Assembly (NCBI RefSeq): GCF_013122565.1
Contig: NZ_CP053258.1
DNA: 64,000 nucleotides
Origin: Escherichia coli
GTDB taxonomy: Bacteria > Pseudomonadota > Gammaproteobacteria > Enterobacterales > Enterobacteriaceae
Strand: one strand, 5' to 3'
This document shows, piece by piece, positions 1 to 63,983 of the stretch (the stretch's first letter is position 1; every line of letters starts with the position of its first letter). Made by a program: the position numbers and the translations under genes. The notes under the pieces were generated by a model. It had not been told where the DNA came from. It saw nothing but the letters and a program-made list of their open reading frames with translations, and searched no databases.

Positions 1-699
1 AAAGAAGTGCTCTTTGCCGTCATCCAGCAGCTTTTTACGGCTGAGGATTTTATTGTCGGCGGTGTCGATAGTAATCAATTCGCCGTCAGCGTTAGTGGTG
101 TAAAGACGTTTGCCTTTGCTATCCAACGCCAGACCGGTACTCATTTTACCGGTGTTCTGGATGGCGGTTTTCAGTTTGATATTCTCGCCATCAACGACCC
201 AAATCACGCTATCTTTACCAATACCACTGATGTAAACGGTGTTCGTGGCATCGTCAGCTACCAGCTCACGCGGTTGCAGCGGGCGCACCTCTTCCGTGCG
301 CTTACGCTCATCCAGCACCAGACGACCTTTCACCTCGCCCGTTTTGGCATCTATCGCCGTGACCGCGCTGTTTACGGTATTACCAAACCACAACGTCTGA
401 GTCGTGTTATTGATGGTGGCACCAAACGGCTTGAGATCGTTATGGATCGCCTGCGTCACTTCCAGAGTGACCGGATCAAGTCGATAAACCACACCACCTT
501 TATCCAGTTTGCGGCTTTGCGAAGTGGCGAGCCACAGCGCGTTTTCTTGCTGGCTATAAGCCATTTCGTAGGCGCCTTTACCTACCGCTTTACGCAGCAT
601 TTCTTCTGCGGCCTGCGTACTGAATGATGAAGCAACAAGCAATGAACCTAACAGTAATGAACCACGCAGGCGCGATGAAAACAGATGACGTAAATGCAT
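1..699 (-). CDS. yncE: YncE, secreted beta-propeller protein; N-terminal 233 codons, C-terminus lies beyond the window start
   Basis: Hand translation of the minus strand from the ATG at 699 gives MHLRHLFSSRLRGSLLLGSLLVASSFSTQAAEE... with a signal peptide; divergent from yncD as in E. coli. The plus-strand ORF 7..627 in the track is the antisense artefact. Confidence 0.85.
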   Translation of the reverse strand, partial: MHLRHLFSSRLRGSLLLGSLLVASSFSTQAAEEMLRKAVGKGAYEMAYSQQENALWLATSQSRKLDKGGVVYRLDPVTLEVTQAIHNDLKPFGATINNTTQTLWFGNTVNSAVTAIDAKTGEVKGRLVLDERKRTEEVRPLQPRELVADDATNTVYISGIGKDSVIWVVDGENIKLKTAIQNTGKMSTGLALDSKGKRLYTTNADGELITIDTADNKILSRKKLLDDGKEHFF

Positions 700-940: not shown

Positions 941-3043
941 ATGAAGATTTTTTCCGTCCGACAGACCGTTTTGCCCGCACTGCTTGTCCTTTCACCCGTT
1001 GTTTTTGCCGCTGATGAACAGACCATGATTGTCAGTGCCGCACCGCAGATGGTTTCCGAGCTGGATACCCCAGCAGCCGTGAGCGTGGTGGATGGCGAGG
1101 AGATGCGCCTGGCAACACCGCGCATTAACTTGTCTGAATCACTGACCAGCGTGCCTGGTTTGCAGGTACAAAACCGGCAGAACTATGCGCAAGATTTACA
1201 GCTGTCGATTCGCGGATTTGGCTCCCGCTCCACTTATGGAATTCGCGGTATTCGCCTGTATGTGGACGGTATTCCCGCTACCATGCCCGACGGACAAGGG
1301 CAGACATCCAATATCGATTTAAGCAGTGTGCAAAATGTGGAAGCGCTGCGTGGTCCCTTCTCTGCCCTGTATGGCAACGCGTCTGGCGGTGTAATGAATG
1401 TCACCACCCAGACCGGACAACAGCCACCAACCATTGAAGCCAGTAGTTACTACGGCAGTTTTGGCAGCTGGCGCTATGGGCTGAAAGCAACGGGCGCAAC
1501 GGGCGACGGCACACAGCCCGGCGATGTCGATTACACCGTCTCAACCACGCGTTTTACGACCCACGGCTATCGTGACCATAGTGGCGCACAGAAAAATTTA
1601 GCCAATGCCAAACTGGGCGTACGCATTGATGAAGCCAGCAAATTAAGCCTGATTTTCAATAGCGTGGATATCAAAGCAGATGACCCAGGTGGATTAACCG
1701 AAGCAGAATGGAAGGCGAATCCGCAACAAGCGCCACGCGCTGAACAGTACGACACGCGAAAAACCATCAAGCAAACTCAGGCTGGGTTGCACTATGAGCG
1801 TAGCCTGAGCGCACAAGATGATATGAGTGTGATGATGTATGCCGGAGAGCGAGAAACGACCCAGTACCAGTCAATCCCGATGGCCCCCCAACTTAATCCG
1901 TCGCATGCGGGCGGCGTGATTACTCTGCAACGCCATTACCAGGGGATAGACAGTCGCTGGACACACCGCGGCGAGCTGGGCGTTCCGGTCACGTTCACTA
2001 CCGGCCTGAACTACGAAAACATGAGTGAAAACCGCAAGGGCTACAATAACTTCCGCCTGAATAGCGGCATGCCGGAGTACGGGCAAAAAGGTGAGTTGCG
2101 TCGCGACGAACGCAATCTGATGTGGAATGTCGATCCCTATTTACAGACGCAGTGGCAGCTGAGCGAAAAACTGTCGCTGGATGCTGGCGTGCGCTACAGC
2201 TCTGTATGGTTTGATTCCAACGATCATTACGTTACTGCGGGTAACGGCGATGACAGCGGTGATGCCAGTTATCACAAATGGCTACCTGCCGGTTCGTTAA
2301 AATATGCAATGACCGATGCCTGGAATATCTATCTGGCAGCCGGGCGTGGTTTTGAAACGCCGACGATTAATGAGCTGTCTTATCGCGCTGACGGGCAAAG
2401 CGGTATGAACTTTGGTTTAAAACCATCCACCAACGATACAATTGAGATCGGCAGTAAAACGCGTATTGGTGATGGGCTGCTTAGTCTCGCATTGTTCCAG
2501 ACCGACACCGATGATGAAATTGTTGTCGATAGCAGTAGCGGTGGGCGTACGACTTACAAAAATGCCGGAAAGACCCGTCGTCAAGGTGCTGAACTGGCAT
2601 GGGATCAACGTTTCGCGGGAGATTTTCGCATAAACGCGACCTGGACCTGGCTTGATGCGACCTATCGCAGCAATGTGTGCAATGAACAGGATTGTAACGG
2701 TAATCGGATGCCAGGGATCGCCCGTAATATGGGCTTTGCGTCGATAGGTTATGTACCGGAAGATGGCTGGTATGCAGGCACGGAGGCGCGTTATATGGGC
2801 GATATTATGGCAGATGATGAAAATACGGCCAAAGCGCCGTCTTATACTCTCGTCGGCTTATTCACCGGGTATAAATACAATTACCACAATTTAACTGTGG
2901 ATTTATTTGGTCGTGTCGATAATTTATTCGATAAAGAATACGTTGGTTCTGTCATTGTCAATGAGTCAAACGGGCGATATTACGAACCTGCGCCCGGGCG
3001 AAATTATGGTGTCGGCATGAATATTGCGTGGCGATTTGAGTAA
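941..3043 (+). CDS. yncD: TonB-dependent outer membrane receptor YncD
   Basis: 700-aa ORF with signal peptide, plug region and C-terminal aromatic residue (ends WRFE) typical of TonB-dependent transporters; length matches YncD. Confidence 0.9.
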   Translation: MKIFSVRQTVLPALLVLSPVVFAADEQTMIVSAAPQMVSELDTPAAVSVVDGEEMRLATPRINLSESLTSVPGLQVQNRQNYAQDLQLSIRGFGSRSTYGIRGIRLYVDGIPATMPDGQGQTSNIDLSSVQNVEALRGPFSALYGNASGGVMNVTTQTGQQPPTIEASSYYGSFGSWRYGLKATGATGDGTQPGDVDYTVSTTRFTTHGYRDHSGAQKNLANAKLGVRIDEASKLSLIFNSVDIKADDPGGLTEAEWKANPQQAPRAEQYDTRKTIKQTQAGLHYERSLSAQDDMSVMMYAGERETTQYQSIPMAPQLNPSHAGGVITLQRHYQGIDSRWTHRGELGVPVTFTTGLNYENMSENRKGYNNFRLNSGMPEYGQKGELRRDERNLMWNVDPYLQTQWQLSEKLSLDAGVRYSSVWFDSNDHYVTAGNGDDSGDASYHKWLPAGSLKYAMTDAWNIYLAAGRGFETPTINELSYRADGQSGMNFGLKPSTNDTIEIGSKTRIGDGLLSLALFQTDTDDEIVVDSSSGGRTTYKNAGKTRRQGAELAWDQRFAGDFRINATWTWLDATYRSNVCNEQDCNGNRMPGIARNMGFASIGYVPEDGWYAGTEARYMGDIMADDENTAKAPSYTLVGLFTGYKYNYHNLTVDLFGRVDNLFDKEYVGSVIVNESNGRYYEPAPGRNYGVGMNIAWRFE

Positions 3044-29856: not shown

Positions 29857-30121
29857 CGACCAAAAACCTCTTTGCGTCACATTTTTACAACAATTATTGC
29901 AGAGAAGATTAATGCTATTGGAATGAAGAGAGTAACGAATGGCTAAACCGAATGACGAAAAATTCTGGAAAACAGCACGCAATTTCGTGAAGTGATTATT
30001 TTCGTCCCTAAGGAAACCTCATAGGATGCCTGCGGGTGCCTGAGACTTTCTGTTTTCAGGCTAACCGGGAATCAGAAAGACGAAGGCCCCGACCGATATT
30101 TCTATCAACCGAGGCCAACGA

Positions 30122-30329
<208 letters not shown>

Positions 30330-30574: not shown

Positions 30575-30745
30575 ATAACCTCCATGGTTTATCGAATCTT
30601 ATGTTCGATTTGAACGTTATACGCTGGTTTATTTTGATACCGTTGATGAGATCAAAGATCGGGTGAATTGATTAAAAATAAGGCAGATGGACGTATGGGC
30701 AAGGATTATGGTTTTATTTGTCATACAAATAAATATAATAGGCGC

Positions 30746-30809
30746 TTCCGATGTAGACCCGTATTCTTCGCCTGTACCACGGGTCGGTTTTAGTACAGGC
30801 GTTTTCTTT
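30746..30809 (+). ncRNA. rydC: RydC small RNA (Hfq-dependent pseudoknot sRNA)
   Basis: cttccgatgtagacccgtattcttcgcctgtaccacgggtcggttttagtacaggcgttttctt matches RydC as I recall it; TATAAT box about 8 nt upstream; ends in a hairpin (gcctgtac / gtacaggc) plus U-run. Confidence 0.65.
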
Positions 30810-44798: not shown

Positions 44799-47105
44799 TC
44801 AATACAACTCATCAAGTTTTCTCATCGCTTGTTCCCGTATTGCGCGCGTCTTACCGTTAAGCGCCAGCTGCCGAACTAAATCCAGTTCAGGGTTAACAAG
44901 CTCTAACGCCAGCAAAGGATCACGTTTCAGCCTCGCCTTTAATACATCAACTGGAAAACGGGGATTATTCATCGCCACAATCCACCACTCGGGATCAATT
45001 TCTGCCGCCAGTACTGCAGGCGGTGTGTGGCGGTTGTTAAGTGCGCCGAACTTGAAAAATGTGAGATTGCTTTTCGCCAGTGTACTCCACCATATACGAT
45101 CCGGTTGTTTTGCCAGTACATCCAGTTGTGCTAACGCATCGGGGTCTAGTGCATAATAAACACGTAACGCTTCGTTAACCTGCGCACGGGAACTGTTTTC
45201 CTGCCTCAGAAAAAACTTCGCCCAAATATCATTGCGTGGCGTGTTTTGCTGTAATTCCTTGAGAACAACAGCGGGTAAATTATCCCAACTAATTAATGCA
45301 CTCTCTAAAAAGTCCCAGTCGTCCGAACGTATCAGAGAGGTGGCATTTAATAGCATCTGGTCATCAACTTCACCGTAGCTGATAAGCTCAGACAAAATCA
45401 TATCAGCGCTGGTTTCATATGCAGCTGAATCTGCTTTGGGATTATTTTTCCGATGCGATAAAGCACGTTGCCAAATTTTTTGTTTCATTGACGTGCTCAG
45501 ATACTGATTTTTCGCCAGATTACTCCACCCCTCAGGATCGTTGAAACGTGTCAATAACCGTTGTAAAGCAGCGTCAGAGTGAATTACCTGCATATCCCGA
45601 CAGCAAAAGTAGGCAGGGGATTTTTTCTCCATCCTTTTAACAAAATTAAACTGTAAGTTATCTGGCAATGCTAAAAATAACACACGTATTAGATCATCGT
45701 CATTCTCGAATTTTTGGTATAAATATACTGCTATTTTGTCACTCTCTTGTGGCGTCATCCGCAACAATTGACCATGGTGTTTCATCTCTGCCAGCTTTGA
45801 CGCTAAGCTTGTGACAACATCGTTTGATGAATCGTTCGCCAACTGCATTGCCTGATTGTAGGTGAGTTGTCCTCCAGCACCGACCTGACGAATAGAGGAA
45901 TCATCACTGCGGATATAGCCATCAATAATGGATTCGGGCAATAACCACGCATCTTTATAAAGCTCCTGAATGATCATATCCCAATCTCTTTTCGCCAGAG
46001 TCATGACGATATCCAGAGGGAGATTTTCACGTAGCGCAAGATTCAACGGACCGACACCATCAGGTAGATGACTCATTCGCGTCATTATTTCGACAGAGAG
46101 CGGTTCACGGTCGAGCAACCCCAGAACAACAGGCTGGTAACCCAATTGCTGATCGGTCAACTCCAGAATCTCATTGTCAGGCATATATCTCGCCATACTT
46201 TCAATCGTTTGTCCATCATTGCTATTAATAAGTTGTTTGCGTAGGTTAGCTGAAATTCCTTTAAGCCTTGGGAGAGTTCGCATTATGGCAAGATCAAATG
46301 TCGCAATATCTCGTCCTTCAAATGCAGCAACGTTGCCTTCATCCAGCATTTGCAATTCCTGCACTAACTCAGGAGCAGGCTTAGGGCGAAACAGCGCTTC
46401 TTTTTTCATCAGATTACAGACATTCCCTGCCATGCGAATATTGCTTCGCTTAAAAATTTCTTTCAGAGCATCTTCATCATTTATTAGACCCCAATAATAT
46501 GCATCAGGATTTATTATCATCAGCGCTTTTTTGACATTTTCAGTGTCATTTTTGTCACTCGCACGGACCATGAATTCACTATTTGTCGAAGACGCAACAA
46601 CAGGTGCAATTATGTCATTGATAAATATCCCACGCGCATTAATACTCCCCTTAATTGTAGACGGATTATCGTAATATGAGTCGATAAATACCAGTCCACT
46701 TGCATTTATCGAACCGGTAATTAACAGTGGTGAATCCGTAACTATATTCGTTGCCGTCACGTTACCGAGAATAACCCATGGATTAGAAAGAGAGAAAGTG
46801 GAAATATTACCTTTGACTGTCAAATTGCCAAGAACAATCAATTTTTGATTACTCTCTATATTACCGTCTACCACTAAATCGCCACGATGCACTTTCCAGT
46901 CCGATGCAGATAAACCGAAGGGGACAAGATTCACGCTACTGTTGATAGCTTGTTCAACTTGTTGTTTATCTTCAGCGGTAGCCGCAGAAAAAAATGGTTC
47001 AATATCAACTGCATTTGCAACACATCGAAGGTCCGCCTGTACTGGAAGACTCAGCATAAACAGGGGAAGTAAACCTATCCAGCCGCAAATCCTGGCCTTA
47101 AACAT
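44799..47105 (-). CDS. ydbD: Large uncharacterised secreted protein YdbD (DUF2773)
   Basis: About 768 aa with a signal peptide (ICGWIGLLPLFMLSLPVQA). The start is chosen among MHMFKAR; the first ATG (47111) is also possible. Confidence 0.75.
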   Translation of the reverse strand: MFKARICGWIGLLPLFMLSLPVQADLRCVANAVDIEPFFSAATAEDKQQVEQAINSSVNLVPFGLSASDWKVHRGDLVVDGNIESNQKLIVLGNLTVKGNISTFSLSNPWVILGNVTATNIVTDSPLLITGSINASGLVFIDSYYDNPSTIKGSINARGIFINDIIAPVVASSTNSEFMVRASDKNDTENVKKALMIINPDAYYWGLINDEDALKEIFKRSNIRMAGNVCNLMKKEALFRPKPAPELVQELQMLDEGNVAAFEGRDIATFDLAIMRTLPRLKGISANLRKQLINSNDGQTIESMARYMPDNEILELTDQQLGYQPVVLGLLDREPLSVEIMTRMSHLPDGVGPLNLALRENLPLDIVMTLAKRDWDMIIQELYKDAWLLPESIIDGYIRSDDSSIRQVGAGGQLTYNQAMQLANDSSNDVVTSLASKLAEMKHHGQLLRMTPQESDKIAVYLYQKFENDDDLIRVLFLALPDNLQFNFVKRMEKKSPAYFCCRDMQVIHSDAALQRLLTRFNDPEGWSNLAKNQYLSTSMKQKIWQRALSHRKNNPKADSAAYETSADMILSELISYGEVDDQMLLNATSLIRSDDWDFLESALISWDNLPAVVLKELQQNTPRNDIWAKFFLRQENSSRAQVNEALRVYYALDPDALAQLDVLAKQPDRIWWSTLAKSNLTFFKFGALNNRHTPPAVLAAEIDPEWWIVAMNNPRFPVDVLKARLKRDPLLALELVNPELDLVRQLALNGKTRAIREQAMRKLDELY

Positions 47106-47168
47106 ATGCACTCCATGCCATTAAAAAAGAAACAAAAGGGAAATGCATCTTTCCCTTTTGTATATTCG

Positions 47169-48029: not shown

Positions 48030-48188
48030 CGCACCCTGCCCTGTAATAAAACGGATTAAGAAAAATCAGTATAGAAACGAAAAGAGATAAATAATGCGAA
48101 GGTGTAAACAAGATTGCTTGATGAGTTGCTCTGTTATCCTGAAAGACACCAAAACAAAACGCGTAAAGCGCCGCATCCGGCAATAAAA

Positions 48189-48237: not shown

Positions 48238-51200
48238 TTAGAACGTTTTCTTGAAGTTCAGCATCACGCCTTTGTCGCTGATGCCGTCCTCTTTCCAGTT
48301 GTACGCATCCAGGTTCAGTGAGCTTTCTTTGCTGCTGTACTTCACGCCGACGCTTGCCAGGCTGTTGATGCCGCCACCCTTCTGACCGTCATCGACGTTA
48401 AAGTGCTGACTGCCTGCGCCTGCCAGGCTTGCCGTGCGCTGGCTCTTCGCGTAGCTCAGATTCGGCCCGCCTTCCAGCGTGGCGCTAGCGCTCCAGCCGT
48501 CTTTACCTGCGTAATCCAGTTTCAACCCGACGATGCTGTCCACCGCCGTTTCGCTGCCACTGTTCATATTCAGGTTAAAGTCTCCGGCATTGCGCTCCTG
48601 ATAGCCACCTTCCAGTGTGTGACGCAGTTTAACACCCGCATATGGCGTAACCTTCAGTCCTTCGCTCGGTTCGAAAGTCTTCGCCCCTTCGCTGCGGAAC
48701 TCCAGGTACTGCTGCTTCACGTCGGTATCAGCCGTTTTGTTTGTGTTGCTAAATGCAATCGAACGGCTGCTGTCAAGGTTGTGAACGTCATAACGCAATG
48801 CGTTATTCCAGTTCATGCCGTTGTCGAAGGACATCTGATGTTTCAGGCCAAAGAACTGGCTGTAGCCGCCGGTTACGCCGTTGTCGCCCGCTTTCTGCGC
48901 ACCATCGCCATCCAGACGCGCAATACCGTATTCCAGGCTCATGCTCTGGCTTTCGCTCAGGTCGATGGTTTTACGCAATGCCAGCATGTCGTACTCGGTA
49001 TTATTACCTAACTCGGCACGCGGATCGCCTTTCGCCACCACGTTGAACGCCAGACCATTGCCCACTTTCGGCGCGGCATCCGCCAGCATACTAAAGCGGT
49101 TGCTTAACACGCGCGCTTCACGGAACACCGTGGTCGCCAGGCTACCGCTGACCTGTTTCAGGGCGCTGTTCAGTTCGGCGGTGGTGCCAACGTTCAGGCT
49201 GGTATACAGCTCGTTGTTGGTGTAACCCGCATCCAGTGCCTTCGCGACGTCATTTACCGAAGCATCGGTTGCGACATCGGTGTAGGCATTTTTGCTCATG
49301 GTAACGTCAACGTTACCGTTGGCATCGGTGCTGCCTTTGGCGTTCCATACGACCGTAGAGGAAACGATGTTGTCCACACCGCTGATGTTTTCGCCTTTGA
49401 ATACATCGTTAACGACAACGGTGGTATCCGCTGTTCCTGCACTAAACCCGGCATTAACACTCACGTTGTCGCCAATCACCAGGTTATTCGCGCTGAGCGT
49501 ACCGGAACTCCCGTCGCTATTGGTACCGATGGTATAGTTGCTCAGCAGTTGCGGCGCATTTGAATCAGCAGGCGGGGTTGGAACATCACCTTGTGACGGC
49601 GTAGTTGATGCGTCTGGTACGGTGATATCCACAGTACCGTTGTGGTCGTTTTGTGTACCCGTTGTTCCAGGAGCATAAATATCGCATCCGGTATCACACA
49701 GCAGGTTAATTTCACCGTTGTTAATGATGGCTTTCGTTTGCCCACCAAACGCCCAGGAATTATCGGCATAGACATTAATCACACCCGTTTGCGTGTTATT
49801 AATTGTTGTTTCCCGACCATTGCCTTTAATACCAATTAAACCTTCGCCATTGGTTCCATCCTGTTGCCCCTGCTCAGTACCCACATTAATGGTGCCACTG
49901 TTCACCAACTGAACAACATAACTGGTTGTGCCGCCACTGATGCCCACCGCATTATCGCCCTGAACATTAATAACGCCAGCGTTAGCAAAGTTATAACCTC
50001 GTCCTAAATCAACCAACGGAGCCGCAGGGTTAATACCATTGATTACCCCTGTTTCTGTGTTCCAGATCCATTTACCTTTACTGTTCGAGCCAGTACTTTC
50101 GGTTTTGATCGCGCTGTAGCCATTTGTAGCCGTAATGGTTCCACGGTTAACCTGAGATACAGAATCCCCGGTTCTGGTTACATGAATAATCGCGTTTTCA
50201 CCGCCCGTTACCGCATTACCACTATTCGTCAGGGTCGCACCCGCTTCGTTGAAGAACAGGAAACTCCCGTTGATGAGTGATTGCCCATCTTCGGTCACCG
50301 TCATTTCACCGGTATTCACTACGTTCTGTTGATAGCTGTTGCCGGTAATTGAACCGCTGAACTCACCTTCGTTAAAGAAGGAAACCGCACCATTCAACGT
50401 AAGGAGATCTGTTGTCATGCTCCCGGTTTCACGGTTATAGATCGTGGTTTTGCTGTTAATACTGTCAACATCCAGGGTCCCACTATTCTCCAACCCTTGA
50501 GTGACACTCAGTTCGCCATTGATGGTCAGACTGGCATCAGGTTGGTTATATAACCAGCCGTTTGCATCAACATTGCCATTAAGCGTTTCATCTCCGTAGT
50601 TTGCCAGGTTATTAACAACGACAAAACCGTCGGTAGTTGTGGTTTTGCTGATGCTCTCCCCGCTACCAGACAACTCGCTAAGAACATCTTTGTCATCCGG
50701 CGTCACCCCCATATGGGAATCACTTTCATCCATTGGATTACCGAAAAGAGTAATTTTTCCGTAGTTGAGAATGGTACCGGTGCTATCTTTATAAAACGCC
50801 TGACCAATATCAGTATTAATATTAATCACACCATCCTGGTCATTAATGGCCAGACCACCTTGAATTGCCCCCATCGCGAACAACTGGTTATCTTGCTGCT
50901 TCGTCACACCCTCATCGGCGGTGAGATTGATCGTTCCCTGGTTGACAACGGTCCCGCCGCTCATCGCCAGCATACCAAAACCTTCGTTATTAACATTGAT
51001 GGTTCCGGTATTTAACCCACTGGCATCGCCATTTCCGATATCGGTTGACCCTACAACAACGCCACCGGACATAAGATAAGGATGGGGTGGTTGCCAGTAG
51101 GATTTACTAATGATATTGCCATCTTCATCAAGTTCGGGAACAAAACCATCGACATTGATTTCCCCGGCATTTGTCGCCGTGCCTTTAGATGCTGCAGCAG

Positions 51201-54200
51201 CATAGTTTCCCGCGCCTTGCAAATTAATGGTGGCGTCAGATTCATTCACTGTGATGCCGTAATCACTGGCCCACAGCCCGTAGTTGACACCGAAATACCA
51301 TTTCAGGGGGGATTCAGACATCCCGCCTGCGTATGCAGGTGTCGTTACAGAGATCAGATTAATAACCCCACCCGACGCATTCGTAACCTGAGAATTCTGG
51401 CCACGAGCACGCATTGTCCCCCCCCTGGAGAATTCCTCACCGCTAGGTTTGACATTAATAATTCCACTATTAGTGATATGTGCACCATTGTTAGCCGTCA
51501 TTAAATCCTGGCTATCCATTGTGTTAATCACACCTTTGTTTTCAACGCTGGACTGACTGCCAATAGCAGAAATAAGCGCACGTTCAAAGAAGAAAAAGTC
51601 GGTTTCCCTGGCTTTACTGGATATATCCGTTACAGCGTTTTCATCAAATATAACTTTTCCACCGTCCGCCACCGAGACCAACGTAAAGGCACCCAATTCC
51701 TGACGGGTATCCATTGTCGAATGACCACTAATGTTAACGGTATTGTCACCAATAACCGATACGCCATCTATAACATGTGCGGCGCTATCACCACTAATAT
51801 TAATACCGCCATCAATATTAACGGTATTCTTCTCGCCAGAAACAATTATGCCACTCACTAAATTTTCCTGGTGTAGCAGCTCCCCTTGTACGGTGATATC
51901 AACATGGCCACTAATATCTACAGTGTTATTTTTACCACTAATCGTTCCACCTGTTAATGCTGTGATTTGTGCATCAGGGTTATCGCCGAGGATGGAATTA
52001 ACATTGATGCTTCCGTCAACGCTAATATGGCTGTCATTACCCGTCAGACTGAAACCTGTAGCACCCGGCGCATTGCCCTCGCTGTCTGGTTGCTGGAATA
52101 CGTTAATATCGCCGCTTAATTGAACCTGTTCACGGTCACCCGCAATGGATACCCCAGTTCCGTACCGTGAAACATCAATTTCGCCCACGTTACCGAAAAC
52201 TTCATCATCACCATCAATCAGAATCCCCACAGAACCGGAATCCGTGACAACAATTTTGCCTTTATTACTTAACTGCGAGTTATTACCGGCAATATCAATA
52301 CCCGTTGCCCCTCCGCTGACGTAGAGGTCACCTTCCTGGCTAATTGTTGCATTGTGACCGGCAACTTTTGTCCCTACTGCATTCGCACCGTCAACCGTCA
52401 TATCCCCGGCGATATTCATCTCATTGCCATCGCCAGTGATGGTTATACCTGTGGCATTTTCACCCAAAATATTAAGATCATAGGTTGCCAGGGTTATACT
52501 ATTGTTGTCGCCGATAATCTCCATGCCAGTCGTATCGTCTTTAACCAGCATTGAGCCAGCAAGAGAAATACTGCTGCTGTCCCCGGTGATTTTTACACCA
52601 GTACCGCTATTTGTTGTGGTGATGTCTCCCACATTGACAAAGGTAGTATTATCACCATTGATTAACACGCCGTAGGGGTTTCCGTCACTGTCCGCCTGAC
52701 CTACATTGATATCACCAATGTTCATAAAGGTTGTTTGATCGCCATCCAGCAATACACCGATGGAAGTATCATCCACCACAGTAACATTACCCTTATTACT
52801 GACGAGAGTACCTTTACCCTCGGCGTCAATACCGTGTGCGCCACCGCTGACGTATAAATCACCCTGTTGCCTTACAATGGCATCTTCGCCGATAATTTTT
52901 GATCCCGTTGAATTTGCACCATCGACGGTCATGTCGCCTTTGATTTCAATGCGGGCATCATCCCCTGTAATCACACTCCCCGTGCCACCATTCGTGATTT
53001 CGACATCACCAACGGTGTTCAACGTAGTACGATCGCCATTGACAATAACGGCCGTACCACCATCGACATCTGTCTCACCATTATTAGTAATGGTGATATC
53101 GTCACCGGTAAGAATACCTACCACCGAACCTTCACCAATCGCGGTAGTTTGACCGTCGTTGTTCAGGGTGATGTCGTTACCGTCAACGTTTATCACAACG
53201 CCGCCATTCAGCGCGATGTTGCCGCCATGGTCGGTAATAGTGGCATCGTTAATATGGAAATGTTCGCCAGTTGTACCGTCTGCGGTGGTGAGTGACTCTA
53301 TGATTATTTCGATTTTTCCCGCTTCGTCATAGCGCCAGGTGGAGGTTCCGCTCGGATTGACGCCATTGAACGAAGCAGTGTTAGCCGCCTCGTCGACTAA
53401 CCAATCCTTTACGATTGTGGTAGTGCCGCCAGGTCCGGTAAGCGTATAGCTGCCATCGTCATTTTTGGTGTAGGTAAAGGTGGTATCACGTAATTTTAGG
53501 GTCTTCGCGTCCTGATCCCAGGTGACATCGTTTTTATAGACCACTGGATCGTGTTTAACTGGCGTGTCATCGCCACCGTCATCCGGGGTGTCATCGCCGC
53601 CATCATCTGGCGGGACGGGGGTGTCGCCGCCATCATCCGGCGGGACTGGTGTGTCGCCGCCATCATCCGGCGGGACTGGTGTATCACCGCCATCATCCGG
53701 CGGGACTGGTGTGTCGCCGCCATCATCCGGCGGGACTGGTGTGTCACCGCCATCATCCGGCGGGACAGGTGTATCACTGCCATCGTCTGGCGGGACTGGC
53801 GTGTCGCCGCCATCATCCGGCGGGATGGGTGTATCACCGCCATCATCCGGCGGGACGGGTGTATCACCGCCATCATCCGGCGGGACTGGCGTGTCGCCGC
53901 CATCATCCGGCGGGACGGGTGTATCACCACCATCATCCGGCGGGACTGGCGTGTCGCCGCCATCATCCGGCACCGGAGACGAATCGTCATGATGATTATT
54001 ATTATCGTGGAGTGCATATACTGCGACACCTGTGACTGCCGCTGCCAGCCCCACTGCAGCCCAGGGTAATAACTCATTATCTTCAACTGATTTACACTCT
54101 GCCGGCAGCTTTTCTAGCTGTTCTTTACTTAGTGATTTAATATTGGCCGGGCAGCTAATCTTGCTGGATTTACGAGATTCATCCGATGTTTCCGCTATCG

Positions 54201-54273
54201 ACGTATCTGCCGCCCATGTCTGGCTGCTTAACGCCATTGCAACACAGACACTGAGCAATTTTTTCCTTTGCAT
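48238..54273 (-). CDS. ydbA: YdbA, giant type Va autotransporter (AIDA-like), intact 2011-aa reading frame
   Basis: Single 6036-nt ORF: signal peptide, Pro/Asp/Gly decapeptide repeat stalk, very long Gly/Thr/Asn-rich beta-helical passenger with pervasive internal repeats, and a C-terminal beta-barrel translocator ending MLNFKKTF. Confidence 0.9.
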   Translation of the reverse strand: MQRKKLLSVCVAMALSSQTWAADTSIAETSDESRKSSKISCPANIKSLSKEQLEKLPAECKSVEDNELLPWAAVGLAAAVTGVAVYALHDNNNHHDDSSPVPDDGGDTPVPPDDGGDTPVPPDDGGDTPVPPDDGGDTPVPPDDGGDTPIPPDDGGDTPVPPDDGSDTPVPPDDGGDTPVPPDDGGDTPVPPDDGGDTPVPPDDGGDTPVPPDDGGDTPVPPDDGGDDTPDDGGDDTPVKHDPVVYKNDVTWDQDAKTLKLRDTTFTYTKNDDGSYTLTGPGGTTTIVKDWLVDEAANTASFNGVNPSGTSTWRYDEAGKIEIIIESLTTADGTTGEHFHINDATITDHGGNIALNGGVVINVDGNDITLNNDGQTTAIGEGSVVGILTGDDITITNNGETDVDGGTAVIVNGDRTTLNTVGDVEITNGGTGSVITGDDARIEIKGDMTVDGANSTGSKIIGEDAIVRQQGDLYVSGGAHGIDAEGKGTLVSNKGNVTVVDDTSIGVLLDGDQTTFMNIGDINVGQADSDGNPYGVLINGDNTTFVNVGDITTTNSGTGVKITGDSSSISLAGSMLVKDDTTGMEIIGDNNSITLATYDLNILGENATGITITGDGNEMNIAGDMTVDGANAVGTKVAGHNATISQEGDLYVSGGATGIDIAGNNSQLSNKGKIVVTDSGSVGILIDGDDEVFGNVGEIDVSRYGTGVSIAGDREQVQLSGDINVFQQPDSEGNAPGATGFSLTGNDSHISVDGSINVNSILGDNPDAQITALTGGTISGKNNTVDISGHVDITVQGELLHQENLVSGIIVSGEKNTVNIDGGINISGDSAAHVIDGVSVIGDNTVNISGHSTMDTRQELGAFTLVSVADGGKVIFDENAVTDISSKARETDFFFFERALISAIGSQSSVENKGVINTMDSQDLMTANNGAHITNSGIINVKPSGEEFSRGGTMRARGQNSQVTNASGGVINLISVTTPAYAGGMSESPLKWYFGVNYGLWASDYGITVNESDATINLQGAGNYAAAASKGTATNAGEINVDGFVPELDEDGNIISKSYWQPPHPYLMSGGVVVGSTDIGNGDASGLNTGTINVNNEGFGMLAMSGGTVVNQGTINLTADEGVTKQQDNQLFAMGAIQGGLAINDQDGVININTDIGQAFYKDSTGTILNYGKITLFGNPMDESDSHMGVTPDDKDVLSELSGSGESISKTTTTDGFVVVNNLANYGDETLNGNVDANGWLYNQPDASLTINGELSVTQGLENSGTLDVDSINSKTTIYNRETGSMTTDLLTLNGAVSFFNEGEFSGSITGNSYQQNVVNTGEMTVTEDGQSLINGSFLFFNEAGATLTNSGNAVTGGENAIIHVTRTGDSVSQVNRGTITATNGYSAIKTESTGSNSKGKWIWNTETGVINGINPAAPLVDLGRGYNFANAGVINVQGDNAVGISGGTTSYVVQLVNSGTINVGTEQGQQDGTNGEGLIGIKGNGRETTINNTQTGVINVYADNSWAFGGQTKAIINNGEINLLCDTGCDIYAPGTTGTQNDHNGTVDITVPDASTTPSQGDVPTPPADSNAPQLLSNYTIGTNSDGSSGTLSANNLVIGDNVSVNAGFSAGTADTTVVVNDVFKGENISGVDNIVSSTVVWNAKGSTDANGNVDVTMSKNAYTDVATDASVNDVAKALDAGYTNNELYTSLNVGTTAELNSALKQVSGSLATTVFREARVLSNRFSMLADAAPKVGNGLAFNVVAKGDPRAELGNNTEYDMLALRKTIDLSESQSMSLEYGIARLDGDGAQKAGDNGVTGGYSQFFGLKHQMSFDNGMNWNNALRYDVHNLDSSRSIAFSNTNKTADTDVKQQYLEFRSEGAKTFEPSEGLKVTPYAGVKLRHTLEGGYQERNAGDFNLNMNSGSETAVDSIVGLKLDYAGKDGWSASATLEGGPNLSYAKSQRTASLAGAGSQHFNVDDGQKGGGINSLASVGVKYSSKESSLNLDAYNWKEDGISDKGVMLNFKKTF
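53565..53975 (-). repeat. About 13 to 14 near-identical 30-bp tandem repeats inside ydbA, encoding PVPPDDGGDT units
   Basis: Directly visible periodicity: (ggtgtcgccgccatcatccggcgggactgg)n with only a few substitutions; in-frame units (PVPPDDGGDT, PIPPDDGGDT, PVPPDDGSDT) at about residues 100 to 240. Confidence 0.9.
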
Positions 54274-54674
54274 ATGAAATTCCTCATAAATAGATGCTTA
54301 CGCAGCCCAGATAAACTGCACAGGGTTAAATAGTTAAAAATATTCGAAATCTGGATATTGTTTTTAACAGAATAAATATATTGATTTAGTGAATGTATTT
54401 ATTCATTAAGTCAATATATCTTTTCTTTAATTTATATTTTTAACGCATTTATTTCAACTTAAAATATGGCGTAATTGAGATTAAATCCGATAACACCGAT
54501 GAATTAAATAATGCAATTAATTCATGAAATAAATAAATTATCATGTGAATGAAGCATTCATCATCGGCATCTATATGAAATTAAATGAAAAATAATTCTC
54601 TATAGCATTGCAGTTAATATTGAATATTTCAGGAGGTACAACCAGGCAGATTTTTCTCGACGAATACCGACTTA

Positions 54675-55001
54675 TTATTTTTGCAACCACATTCCGTTTA
54701 TCCCGCGAATGTATTCTCCCGGCTTAGCTTTTGCTACCAGTTTCTGCCCCGCCAATTTTTCCACTTCCGCAACCGGCAGATTATTTTTCATGGCGAGTTG
54801 TTGATAGCTCTTATTACGCGATTCATTAATCCTTTTGACTAACATCTGTGTTTCGGTATCCGCCTTTAATGCAACCAGATAACCATTATACGTTTCGCCA
54901 ACACGCCCCTGAGTTCGAGCGTCATCCAGCGTCAGAGCCATCGCACTGGTGCTAAATAAGGCATTAATGACAAAACACAGTATTAAACTTCTCTTCATCA
55001 T
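54675..55001 (-). CDS. ydbL: Periplasmic protein YdbL (DUF1318)
   Basis: ORF 54675..55079 trimmed to the MMKRSLILCFVINALFSTSAMA start (108 aa) with a signal peptide; third gene of ydbH-ynbE-ydbL. Confidence 0.8.
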   Translation of the reverse strand: MMKRSLILCFVINALFSTSAMALTLDDARTQGRVGETYNGYLVALKADTETQMLVKRINESRNKSYQQLAMKNNLPVAEVEKLAGQKLVAKAKPGEYIRGINGMWLQK

Positions 55002-55005
55002 CGCC

Positions 55006-55191
55006 TCAGAAAAGATCGCTACGAGTTTCAAGCAGCTCTTCGACATCTTTGTCTGCCTTGATGATGATCTCATGCTCAATTTTAACGTTCATATTGATAG
55101 TGATCGGTTCCTTAGGTGCAGCGACTTCAATGCGAGGCGTACAGCCAACCAGCATAAAAGATGACGTCAACGCAGCCAGTAAAATTTTCAT
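55006..55191 (-). CDS. ynbE: Small lipoprotein YnbE (61 aa)
   Basis: MKILLAALTSSFMLVGCTPRIEV... with a lipobox (LVGC); its start overlaps the ydbH stop by 4 nt. Confidence 0.8.
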   Translation of the reverse strand: MKILLAALTSSFMLVGCTPRIEVAAPKEPITINMNVKIEHEIIIKADKDVEELLETRSDLF

Positions 55192-63618: not shown

Positions 63619-63646
63619 ATGCACTGGATAAGGATTATCCAATTCT

Positions 63647-63684
63647 AAAAAAAAGCCCGGACGACTGTTCGGGCTTGTCTTTTT
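63647..63684. terminator. Bidirectional Rho-independent terminator shared by pfo and micC
   Basis: GC-rich hairpin (gcccg ... cgggc, 63654..63676) flanked by A8 upstream and gtcttttt downstream, so a U-run follows on either strand. Confidence 0.7.
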
Positions 63685-63756
63685 ATATGTTAGAAAATCA
63701 GTGGCAATGCAATGGCCCAACAGAAAATAAAATCTGTGACAATAAAGGCATATAAC
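63648..63756 (-). ncRNA. micC: MicC small RNA (Hfq-dependent repressor of ompC/ompD)
   Basis: Reverse complement reads gttatatgcctttattgtcacagattttattttctgttgggccattgcattgccactgatttt...aagcccgaacagtcgtccgggctttttttt, matching MicC as I recall it; divergent from ompN. Confidence 0.7.
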
Positions 63757-63983
63757 CCGCGCAGAATAACGTATAGCAAATTAAAAGTATAATTTTTATT
63801 TTGTATGTATTATCTTCGATACATTCACCAGACTTATTATCATTTCAGAAGAATTATTTGATTAAGGTTTTACTTAAGGCGTAACAAATGATATTTATCG
63901 GCTAACTGAACTTCTCCTTTAGGATGTTTTCACTCCCCGAAATGGGGATAAAAGGCAAATAAAATAACTAAAGGATTTATTCA

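Follow-up and report, generated by a model that had tools for sequence, protein, structure and literature searches.

An intact allele of the ydbA/bigA-family autotransporter gene in an Escherichia coli genome

Described relatives and the locus under study

The BigA/YdbA autotransporters are covered by curated models in Pfam and NCBIfam, and their architecture is conserved across Enterobacterales. The BigA passenger has been termed 'AIDA-I-like' on a NalP-type barrel (Celik et al. 2012, PMC3419190), BigA is still listed only as a candidate adhesin (2026 preprint), and full-length ydbA has been reported in ~42% of phylogroup A (2016 paper). In Escherichia coli K-12, the annotation of ydbA gives two pseudogene pieces (ydbA_1 and ydbA_2) with IS30 and IS2 between them. 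A literature search for functional work on YdbA or on BigA of Salmonella returned none, the mentions of ydbA/BigA being genomic only, which agrees with a first, sequence-only reading of this DNA that had called the function essentially unstudied.

In the current study, we analysed a 64,000-nt stretch of an E. coli genome (the window; contig NZ_CP053258.1), in which ydbA sits between pdxI (ydbC) and ydbL. Comparison with the annotated VE-T9, 7/2 and K-12 loci places it at the position of K-12 ydbA, bounded by pdxI and, on the other side, by the ydbL or paaY end of a variable region, as an allele of that locus and a positional orthologue of the K-12 gene. We consider it very probable that the window carries the accessory gene ydbA in intact form, that this allele encodes a type Va autotransporter of the BigA/YdbA family, and that it is maintained by selection.

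Membership of the family is indicated by the BigA_N (PF25784) and BigA_beta (PF25783) domains that flank the beta-helix. The closest match considered, P0001 (GCA_018578885.1), is 98% identical over 100% of the length of the window protein, and BigA_3rd and BigA_4th are recorded for it. It shares the mosaic and the locus, with 99.2-99.7% identity in the surrounding 18 kb of DNA, and differs in its length (1971 vs 2011 aa), being short of four 10-aa repeat units, and by a few substitutions. The window protein scored 2053 bits against the NCBIfam model NF033178 (auto_BigA), below its cut-off of 3400 bits; this is a narrow model of the 'exception' type, and NCBI still names P0001 'autotransporter adhesin BigA'. 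Salmonella enterica BigA (NF033178) has the same domain order (BigA_N, BigA_3rd, BigA_4th, BigA_beta) and the same N-terminal module, the window module at aa 1100-1650 is BigA-like (49-76% identical), and the barrel is 82-88% identical, whereas overall identity is about 58%. Salmonella bigA presumably lies at a chromosomal locus different from that of ydbA.

The self-associating autotransporters of the AIDA-I type (Ag43, TibA, AIDA-I) are likewise type Va proteins whose passenger is a long right-handed beta-helix. The window protein differs from them in being ~2x as long and in carrying the BigA-specific N-terminal module and BigA_beta, and no Pfam match to AIDA or pertactin-type repeats was found in it at E up to 10. 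With the translocators of NalP, EspP and EstA it shares a 12-strand barrel following a putative pore-crossing helix (Foldseek E 1e-7 to 1e-5), whereas identity is 12-17% and their passengers (proteases, esterase) are unrelated. On reading the linker sequence, no SPATE-type cleavage motif was noticed. The most probable role predicted for the window protein is in adhesion or aggregation, as a surface factor that would be kept attached to the cell.

Predicted architecture of the window protein

The gene is a single frame that starts with ATG and has zero internal stops in 2011 codons (Table 1). The chance of a stop-free run of this length is ~(61/64)^2011, roughly 1e-42, and the homologues share the same start Met in the alignment. 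The unbroken 6-kb frame described by the sequence-only reading was hence confirmed, as was its richness in Gly, Thr, Asn and Asp (G 13.4%, T 9.7%, D 9.6%, N 8.7%). The signal peptide (by inspection), the C-terminal barrel of 12 strands and the linker helix (both in AlphaFold2, AF2, models) identify the product as a type Va autotransporter.

Table 1. Features of the ydbA gene and its product in the window
Feature	Position	Strand	Basis or remark
Promoter-like site TTGAAA-17-TAAATT, 5' of ydbA	54457..54429	-	putative promoter, from the letters
Imperfect 21-nt tandem repeat	54370-54430		within the region 5' of ydbA
AT-rich intergenic region 5' of ydbA	54274..54675	-	~38% GC, about 390 nt
Ribosome-binding site GAGGA	54285..54281	-	7 nt 5' of the ydbA ATG
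ydbA/bigA-family autotransporter ORF, 2011 aa + stop	48238..54273	-	ORF listing, translation
Sec signal peptide, aa 1-21	54211..54273	-	inspection; conserved in homologues; cleavage expected after TWA
Conserved Cys loop C41...C60, CPxxxxxLSxEQxxKLPxEC	54094..54153	-	alignment of family members
Gly/Ala-rich hydrophobic helix candidate, aa 67-88	54010..54075	-	hydropathy, alignment
In-frame 30-nt tandem repeat array	53594..53971	-	12.6 copies; encodes DDGGDTPVPP, acidic Pro-rich spacer
BigA_N beta-barrel cap domain, aa 244-323	53305..53544	-	Pfam PF25784 E 4.2e-26; AF2 pLDDT 83-91
Beta-helical passenger, aa ~324-1545	49639..53304	-	AF2; Foldseek
BigA_beta sandwich domain, aa 1579-1663	49285..49539	-	Pfam PF25783 E 1.6e-24; AF2
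Helical linker region, aa 1664-1732	49078..49284	-	AF2 secondary structure
12-strand outer-membrane translocator barrel, aa 1741-2011	48241..49053	-	Pfam Autotransporter PF03797 E 2.1e-18; AF2
Terminator-like hairpin + T-run	48157..48178	-	60 nt past the ydbA stop; consensus scan only

Structure prediction of the passenger and the barrel, proposed as a check by that same reading, yielded a beta-helix and a 12-strand barrel. The models are of high confidence over residues 244-2011 (pLDDT mostly above 85-90), where they show a beta-helix, then the sandwich domain, the linker helix and, last, the barrel. A long helix (1715-1732) directly precedes the first barrel strand in the model and, by analogy with the structures of NalP and EspP, would occupy the pore. 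The barrel was predicted at 1741-2009 with a pLDDT of about 90 (mean of the AlphaFold2 model, 91.3), and Foldseek matched it to the solved translocators AaaA, EstA, NalP, EspP, BrkA and Hbp at E 1e-7 to 1e-4, with a TM of 0.66-0.68 for NalP. The proposed C-terminal translocator is thus supported by the Pfam match, the model and the Foldseek matches; the whole protein, searched against the sequences of solved structures, gave no match at E up to 0.01.

The passenger is built in the AF2 model of rungs with three strands and ~24 residues each. These rungs account, at the protein level, for the short internal repeats that had been described as pervasive, whereas in the DNA of the gene the 30-nt array is the only repeat. 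Foldseek matches to the passenger were right-handed beta-helix proteins only, with Ag43 first; the fold resemblance to Ag43 and TibA is weak (E 2e-3, TM 0.15-0.22). An enzyme of the pectate-lyase fold that cleaves polysaccharides, as a lyase or hydrolase, instead of an adhesin, is suggested by the RefSeq name of some alleles ('pectate lyase-fold domain-containing protein') and by Foldseek, whose top matches include PL6 alginate lyases and phage tailspike depolymerases. Those matches are, however, weak (E 1e-2 to 0.5, TM 0.1-0.25, 8-14% identity), no lyase or hydrolase family of Pfam or NCBIfam matched the protein, and no catalytic motif was identified. We regard an enzymatic passenger as very improbable and rejected the lyase assignment, the similarity being that of the generic beta-helix fold.

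Based on knowledge of the family, Sec would export the protein via its N-terminal signal peptide and BAM would place the C-terminal 12-strand barrel in the outer membrane. The ~1700-aa passenger would be threaded out with its C-terminal end first and its N-terminal end last, folding as a long right-handed beta-helix atop the BigA_beta domain. The tip most distant from the cell would consist of the BigA_N cap, the acidic and Pro-rich spacer with its variable length, and the hydrophobic helix together with the Cys loop.

The N-terminal module

A signal peptide had been proposed from the sequence alone, and inspection supports it: MQRKKLLSVCVAMALSSQTWA, followed by AD, begins with positive charges (RKK), continues with a hydrophobic core and has TWA before the A at the expected cleavage site, and it is conserved among homologues. 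It opens a family-wide N-terminal module, present in the window protein, that continues with a CPx17-18C loop, a Gly/Ala-rich hydrophobic helix and a His/Asp and Pro-rich spacer; this module is a family description drawn up in the current analysis rather than a published criterion. Among 35 diverged family members sharing 27-91% overall identity, C41 and C60 are invariant and conservation reaches at least 90% at P42, L48 and L56; the helix, too, is conserved. The segment at aa 67-88 contains the most hydrophobic 19-aa stretch of the window protein (KD 1.77). In 27 sequences, charged residues are absent across ~19 aligned helix columns (66-83), and the residue is small at columns 71, 75 and 79 in 96%, 93% and 96% of sequences, giving a small-xxx-small pattern. 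To our knowledge, no role is accepted for such a conserved hydrophobic helix in the passenger of a type Va protein. The disulfide loop and the Gly/Ala-rich helix are the one unexplained feature of the window gene, and the single feature that could yield novelty. A full-text literature search for autotransporters whose N-terminus combines a hydrophobic with a proline-rich region gave no match.

In the autotransporter toxin VacA, an N-terminal hydrophobic region inserts into the membrane or drives oligomerisation. If the passenger were likewise more than an adhesin, with a tip of loop, glycine-zipper-like helix and flexible tether that inserts into membranes or drives oligomerisation, the invariant cysteines, the charge-free helix with its small residues and the position of this segment at the hydrophobicity maximum of the protein would fit. 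This is nevertheless unlikely: the window protein resembles VacA neither in sequence nor in structure, the helix has an AF2 pLDDT <50 within the first 240 residues, which were not confidently modelled, and a simple Hessa sum of +2.5 kcal/mol speaks against the helix entering a membrane spontaneously. A profile of the 71-aa module, searched against 5.8 billion proteins, returned three partial BigA fragments only, a result that is silent on occurrence outside the family since the prefilter was probably swamped by low-complexity words. We hold it to be quite unlikely that the disulfide loop, the charge-free glycine-zipper-like helix and the length-polymorphic acidic Pro-rich tether form a conserved, undescribed tip module that inserts into a target or neighbouring membrane or oligomerises. 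If it did, the BigA/YdbA 'adhesins' would be contact-dependent membrane-active proteins with a VacA-like N-terminal region, and the intact allele of the window would be a ready template for a test. The helix was also considered as an inner-membrane stop-transfer anchor, which is unlikely given its acidic residues on both flanks and the Hessa sum, and given that passenger and barrel would then stay cytoplasmic.

The spacer that follows the helix contains 14 DDGGD-type units as counted in the protein (aa 103-240), and the copy number of the unit ranges from 0 to 22 across 120 homologues. These repeats had been taken for a stalk, which they cannot be at the cell surface, because the N-terminus of a type Va protein is the end farthest from the barrel.

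K-12 ydbA, allele classes and selection

The disruption of K-12 ydbA by IS2 and IS30, which the sequence-only reading had stated, is borne out by annotation and by mapping. The two elements map as simple insertions ~50 bp apart in flanking gene sequence that is otherwise continuous, at a point corresponding to about aa 917 of the window protein (nt ~51520, approximate), and the K-12 gene is not intact and collinear. Both genes have the same position by pdxI (ydbC) and the same architecture, from signal peptide, Cys loop, hydrophobic helix and Pro-rich region to BigA_N, beta-helix, BigA_beta and barrel. The K-12 gene differs in being disrupted, in a C-terminal passenger module of another type, and in having the paa-tynA-fea cluster upstream, whereas ydbL-ynbE-ydbH lie directly upstream in the window.

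The shared locus and architecture, the barrel (98-100% identical in protein) and the simple nature of the K-12 insertions would suit the earlier proposal that the window gene is the functional ancestor of the K-12 pseudogene, so that removal of the IS elements from K-12 would restore the window protein. The passenger, however, is just 19-47% identical per 100-aa bin to the concatenated K-12 pieces, neither collinear with nor closely similar to the K-12 allele, and the DNA can be aligned only in the last 1354 nt, at 94% identity. Even the barrel has a dS of 0.26 vs K-12, while the flanking core genes show 1-2% nucleotide divergence. The C-terminal passenger module of K-12 belongs to another allele class, being 74-80% identical to P0002, P0107 and P0117 and 50-53% identical to the class of the window. 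The real intact counterpart of K-12 ydbA is the type of P0126/MRSN346595; P0126, an intact K-12-type allele, is 99.8% identical to ydbA_2. Since passenger identity, DNA alignment and module typing all contradict it, the proposed ancestry is refuted, and we give it next to no credence.

The window allele is instead a recombinant of two allele classes, not a precursor of the K-12 pseudogene. In the per-100-aa identity table, the first ~1100 aa match the E. coli class of VE-T9/P0002, and aa ~1100-1650 match the P0003/P0008 class, which is closest to Salmonella BigA. The switch between classes, a recombination junction, lies at aa ~1100-1200 (nt ~50670-50970), and the barrel is conserved in all ydbA alleles. 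Over the ydbA region, identity to E. coli is only ~92-95%, which prompted consideration of another Escherichia species as the origin of the DNA; this was rejected, because the 24-kb flank shows 98-99% identity to many E. coli genomes. K-12 is no guide to a locus with several deeply diverged, recombining allele classes that are often lost or broken.

The locus is present in ~47% of complete E. coli genomes and absent from ~53%, and its copies are intact or independently broken. Among the sampled loci, ydbA was inactivated in four separate ways, the IS, frameshift and stop disruptions having arisen independently; the gene is dispensable. A frame that is intact but cryptic, silent in most conditions (e.g., H-NS-repressed), contributing little and heading for loss, would be consistent with this pattern of absence and disruption, with the AT-rich upstream region, with the complete lack of ydbA in the closest backbone relative, PapM-32-1, and with the increased transcription of K-12 ydbA in an rpoZ mutant alongside horizontally acquired genes (PMC5811629). 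Such a state is possible, if doubtful. Against it, dN/dS is 0.02 for the barrel and ranges from 0.09 to 0.25 across the passenger, over hundreds of codons and at dS up to 0.36, and values in this range indicate long-term purifying selection on intact ydbA alleles. The architecture is moreover kept across Enterobacterales, and silencing in the laboratory is compatible with a function in the host. A selected, intact autotransporter accordingly remains our preferred reading, and intact alleles under purifying selection are suitable templates for a first functional study of this Enterobacterales-wide family.

The rarity of an intact allele, implied at the outset, did not hold, since intact alleles like that of the window are common, already catalogued and not new; the finding of an intact ydbA is correct and ordinary, and its importance is modest. 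The appropriate annotation is that of an intact autotransporter of the ydbA/bigA family, and a label that relates it to the EntS/YbdA transporter does not apply. Names in RefSeq vary: besides the alleles named after the pectate lyase fold, some records mislabel the ydbA/bigA-family protein as a relative of EntS/YbdA.

Reading frame, family and predicted fold

The ydbA gene of the window, a member of the bigA family, has no internal stop in the translation of its 2011 codons, a run whose chance of being stop-free is, by simple arithmetic, (61/64)^2011 or ~1e-42. Thus, the single uninterrupted frame proposed in the sequence-only reading is confirmed, and all the parts listed there (signal peptide, repeats, a passenger rich in Gly/Thr/Asp/Asn and a C-terminal barrel) were found. 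The start Met is common to homologues, GAGGA lies 7 nt 5' of the ATG, and a terminator-like hairpin follows 60 nt 3' of the stop codon. By inspection, the signal peptide is MQRKKLLSVCVAMALSSQTWA, cleaved before AD. An AT-rich intergenic region of ~390 nt (~38% GC) separates ydbA from the upstream ydbL. It contains an imperfect 21-nt tandem repeat close to the sole promoter-like site upstream of ydbA, which could be a regulator-binding array or a chance occurrence in AT-rich DNA.

Features of the window and of the YdbA protein
Feature	Nucleotides	Residues	Strand	Details
sok antitoxin RNA	30034-30185		+	hok/sok-type locus; Rfam, gathering-level
RydC sRNA	30745-30808		+	Rfam, gathering-level
ydbD	44799-47111		-	DUF2773 "bactofilin"; intact 770-aa ORF
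ydbA/bigA	48238..54273		-	single ORF, 2011 codons, ATG start
ydbA barrel DNA	48241-49170			
Second Cys pair	~49684-49698	1526, 1530		LLCDTGCDIY
In-frame repeat array	53594-53971			30-nt period; encodes DDGGDTPVPP
Site of missing feaR/feaB-tynA-paa cluster	54274-55188			~20 kb in K-12
21-nt tandem repeat	54370-54430			2.9 copies, 75% matches
Promoter-like site	54457..54429			
MicC sRNA	63639-63759		-	Rfam, gathering-level
BigA_N		244-323		Pfam, E 4.2e-26
BigA_beta		1579-1663		Pfam, E 1.6e-24
Autotransporter domain		C-terminal barrel		PF03797; Pfam, E 2.1e-18

The protein belongs to a curated family and is already known and annotated. P0001, a homologue recorded as "autotransporter adhesin BigA [Escherichia coli]", matches it along the entire length at 98% identity. 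The main difference is that P0001 lacks four of the repeat units; across 18 kb, its locus and the window share 99.2-99.7% identity. Pfam includes four BigA domain families, and the NCBIfam BigA model scores the protein at 2053 bits, under its 3400-bit cut-off. With 211 clusters (50% identity) at E <=1e-3 among 1.84 billion representatives, the family is compact; it extends across the Enterobacterales, including Salmonella, Enterobacter, Citrobacter, Rahnella, Erwinia, E. albertii and E. ruysiae. Several autotransporters at the ydbA locus are labelled "EntS/YbdA MFS transporter" in RefSeq (e.g., NZ_CP139039.1, and the homologue P0119), which looks like a confusion of the names ydbA and ybdA spread via annotation.

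We ran AlphaFold2 on the protein as two halves, with 35 and 59 family members in the respective input alignments. A beta-helix with three-stranded rungs was predicted for residues 244-1020 (pLDDT mostly >90). In the model of residues 1001-2011 (mean pLDDT 91.3), this beta-helix extends to approximately residue 1545; next come the BigA_beta sandwich, a helical linker at 1664-1732 and, at 1741-2009, a barrel of 12 strands. These models favor the beta-helix passenger and barrel expected in the sequence-only reading. Foldseek searches against the PDB matched the C-terminal half to the translocators of AaaA, EstA, NalP, EspP, BrkA and Hbp (E 1e-7 to 1e-4; TM 0.66-0.68 on target for NalP), while the matches of the N-terminal half were weak and all to right-handed beta-helix proteins, with Ag43 at the top (E 2e-3), followed by PL6 lyases, TibA, pertactin, Hbp and Fap2. 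This pattern agrees with the description of BigA as an AIDA-I-like passenger with a NalP-type barrel (Celik et al. 2012, PMC3419190).

The second closely spaced Cys pair, near the passenger end, is conserved among E. coli and Salmonella alleles within their BigA-like module. Cys pairs tend to be closely spaced in autotransporter passengers competent for translocation.

The N-terminal module

Apart from the Cys-loop stretch (residues ~41-62, pLDDT ~56) and a few scattered positions, residues 1-240 were modeled with pLDDT <50. All 35 aligned diverged family members share an N-terminal module, with its parts in the same order: signal peptide, Cys loop, short acidic stretch, hydrophobic helix, His/Asp/Gly stretch and Pro-rich repeats. 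The Cys loop is closed by the invariant C41 and C60 (CPxxxxxL[ST]xEQxxKLPxxC). Hydrophobicity along the protein peaks in the helix (KD 1.77), which is Trp-initiated and Gly/Ala-rich. Its ~19 aligned columns (66-83) contain no charged residue in 27 sequences, and at columns 71, 75 and 79 the residue is small in 96%, 93% and 96% of the sequences, respectively. An inner-membrane anchor is unlikely: it would leave the barrel cytoplasmic, the helix is flanked by acidic stretches on both sides, and a simple Hessa sum gives +2.5 kcal/mol. The N-terminus of VacA has a membrane-inserting or oligomerising role; by analogy, a similar role might be imagined for this module, with low probability.

The Pro-rich array had been regarded as a "repeat stalk". 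The type Va (classical autotransporter) topology places the N-terminal module at the cell-distal tip, so that the array would be a tip tether, not a stalk. Among 120 homologues, the number of 10-aa repeat units varies between 0 and 22. Since each unit keeps the reading frame, the variation is a length polymorphism and not an on/off switch.

Allele mosaicism and the K-12 gene

Judged by identity along the protein, the window allele is a mosaic of allele classes. Residues 1-~1100 are closest to the class of strain VE-T9 and homologue P0002 (86-99%, outside the repeat array at 101-200 and one 71% bin at 801-900), and residues ~1100-1650 to that of homologues P0003 and P0008 (90-98%), with 49-76% identity to Salmonella BigA. 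VE-T9, P0002 and K-12 are only 23-37% identical to the window protein at residues 1200-1600. None of 5426 complete E. coli genomes covered at least 80% of the ORF at megablast level; by contrast, the 24-kb flank is 98-99% identical to thousands of genomes.

The statement that K-12 ydbA is split by IS2 and IS30 proved correct: a K-12 derivative is annotated with two pseudogene pieces and both elements between, and alignment to MRSN346595, a strain with the same allele type, resolved two simple insertions separated by ~50 bp. A 55-nt piece of the gene lies between the two elements, the junctions show short overlaps and the rest of the gene is continuous. The further proposal that the window carries the ancestral form of this gene found no support in the suggested K-12 alignment. 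The window protein is 32% identical to ydbA_1 and 50% to ydbA_2; in 100-aa bins, passenger identity is 19-47%, 98-100% is reached in the last ~300 residues only, and the DNA is alignable in the last 1354 nt only (94%). The second passenger module of K-12 belongs to another class, that of P0002: identity is 74-80% with P0002, P0107 and P0117, and 99.8% with P0126.

Selection, distribution and locus states

Nei-Gojobori estimates for the barrel against VE-T9, K-12 and strain 7/2 gave a dN/dS of 0.02 (dS 0.23-0.29), and for the passenger against VE-T9 and 7/2 a dN/dS of 0.09-0.25 (dS 0.05-0.36). These low ratios indicate that intact alleles are kept by purifying selection. In the barrel, dS amounts to about 10 times the nucleotide divergence of flanking core genes, suggesting old allelic lineages that have been exchanged by recombination. 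This very high synonymous divergence from other E. coli alleles, in a barrel whose protein sequence is 98-100% identical and beside genes that differ by only 1-2%, suggests an old allelic lineage or an import from a distant Escherichia lineage.

Barrel DNA is present in 2529 of the 5426 complete genomes. Intact genes were sampled in VE-T9 (6156 bp) and 7/2 (6081 bp), both in a paa-less context like the window. Besides the K-12 gene, broken forms occur in O157:H7, where the gene is split into two ORFs, in MP1, whose 8.4-kb allele carries a frameshift, and in MRSN346595, with IS3 close to the 5' end. A 2016 paper described ydbA as "an autotransporter pseudogene in MG1655", full-length in ~42% of phylogroup A (PMC4951805).

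The feaR/feaB-tynA-paa cluster, located between ydbL and ydbA in K-12, is missing in the window, so that ydbL lies directly upstream of ydbA. PapM-32-1, the closest backbone relative, has the paa cluster without ydbA; thus, the two vary independently. The ydbA/paa site is a multi-state hotspot (see also PMC4951805).

The sok, RydC and MicC matches are ordinary E. coli features. The ydbD gene, intact in the window, has an internal stop in VE-T9, the strain that shares the ydbA N-terminal allele class of the window.
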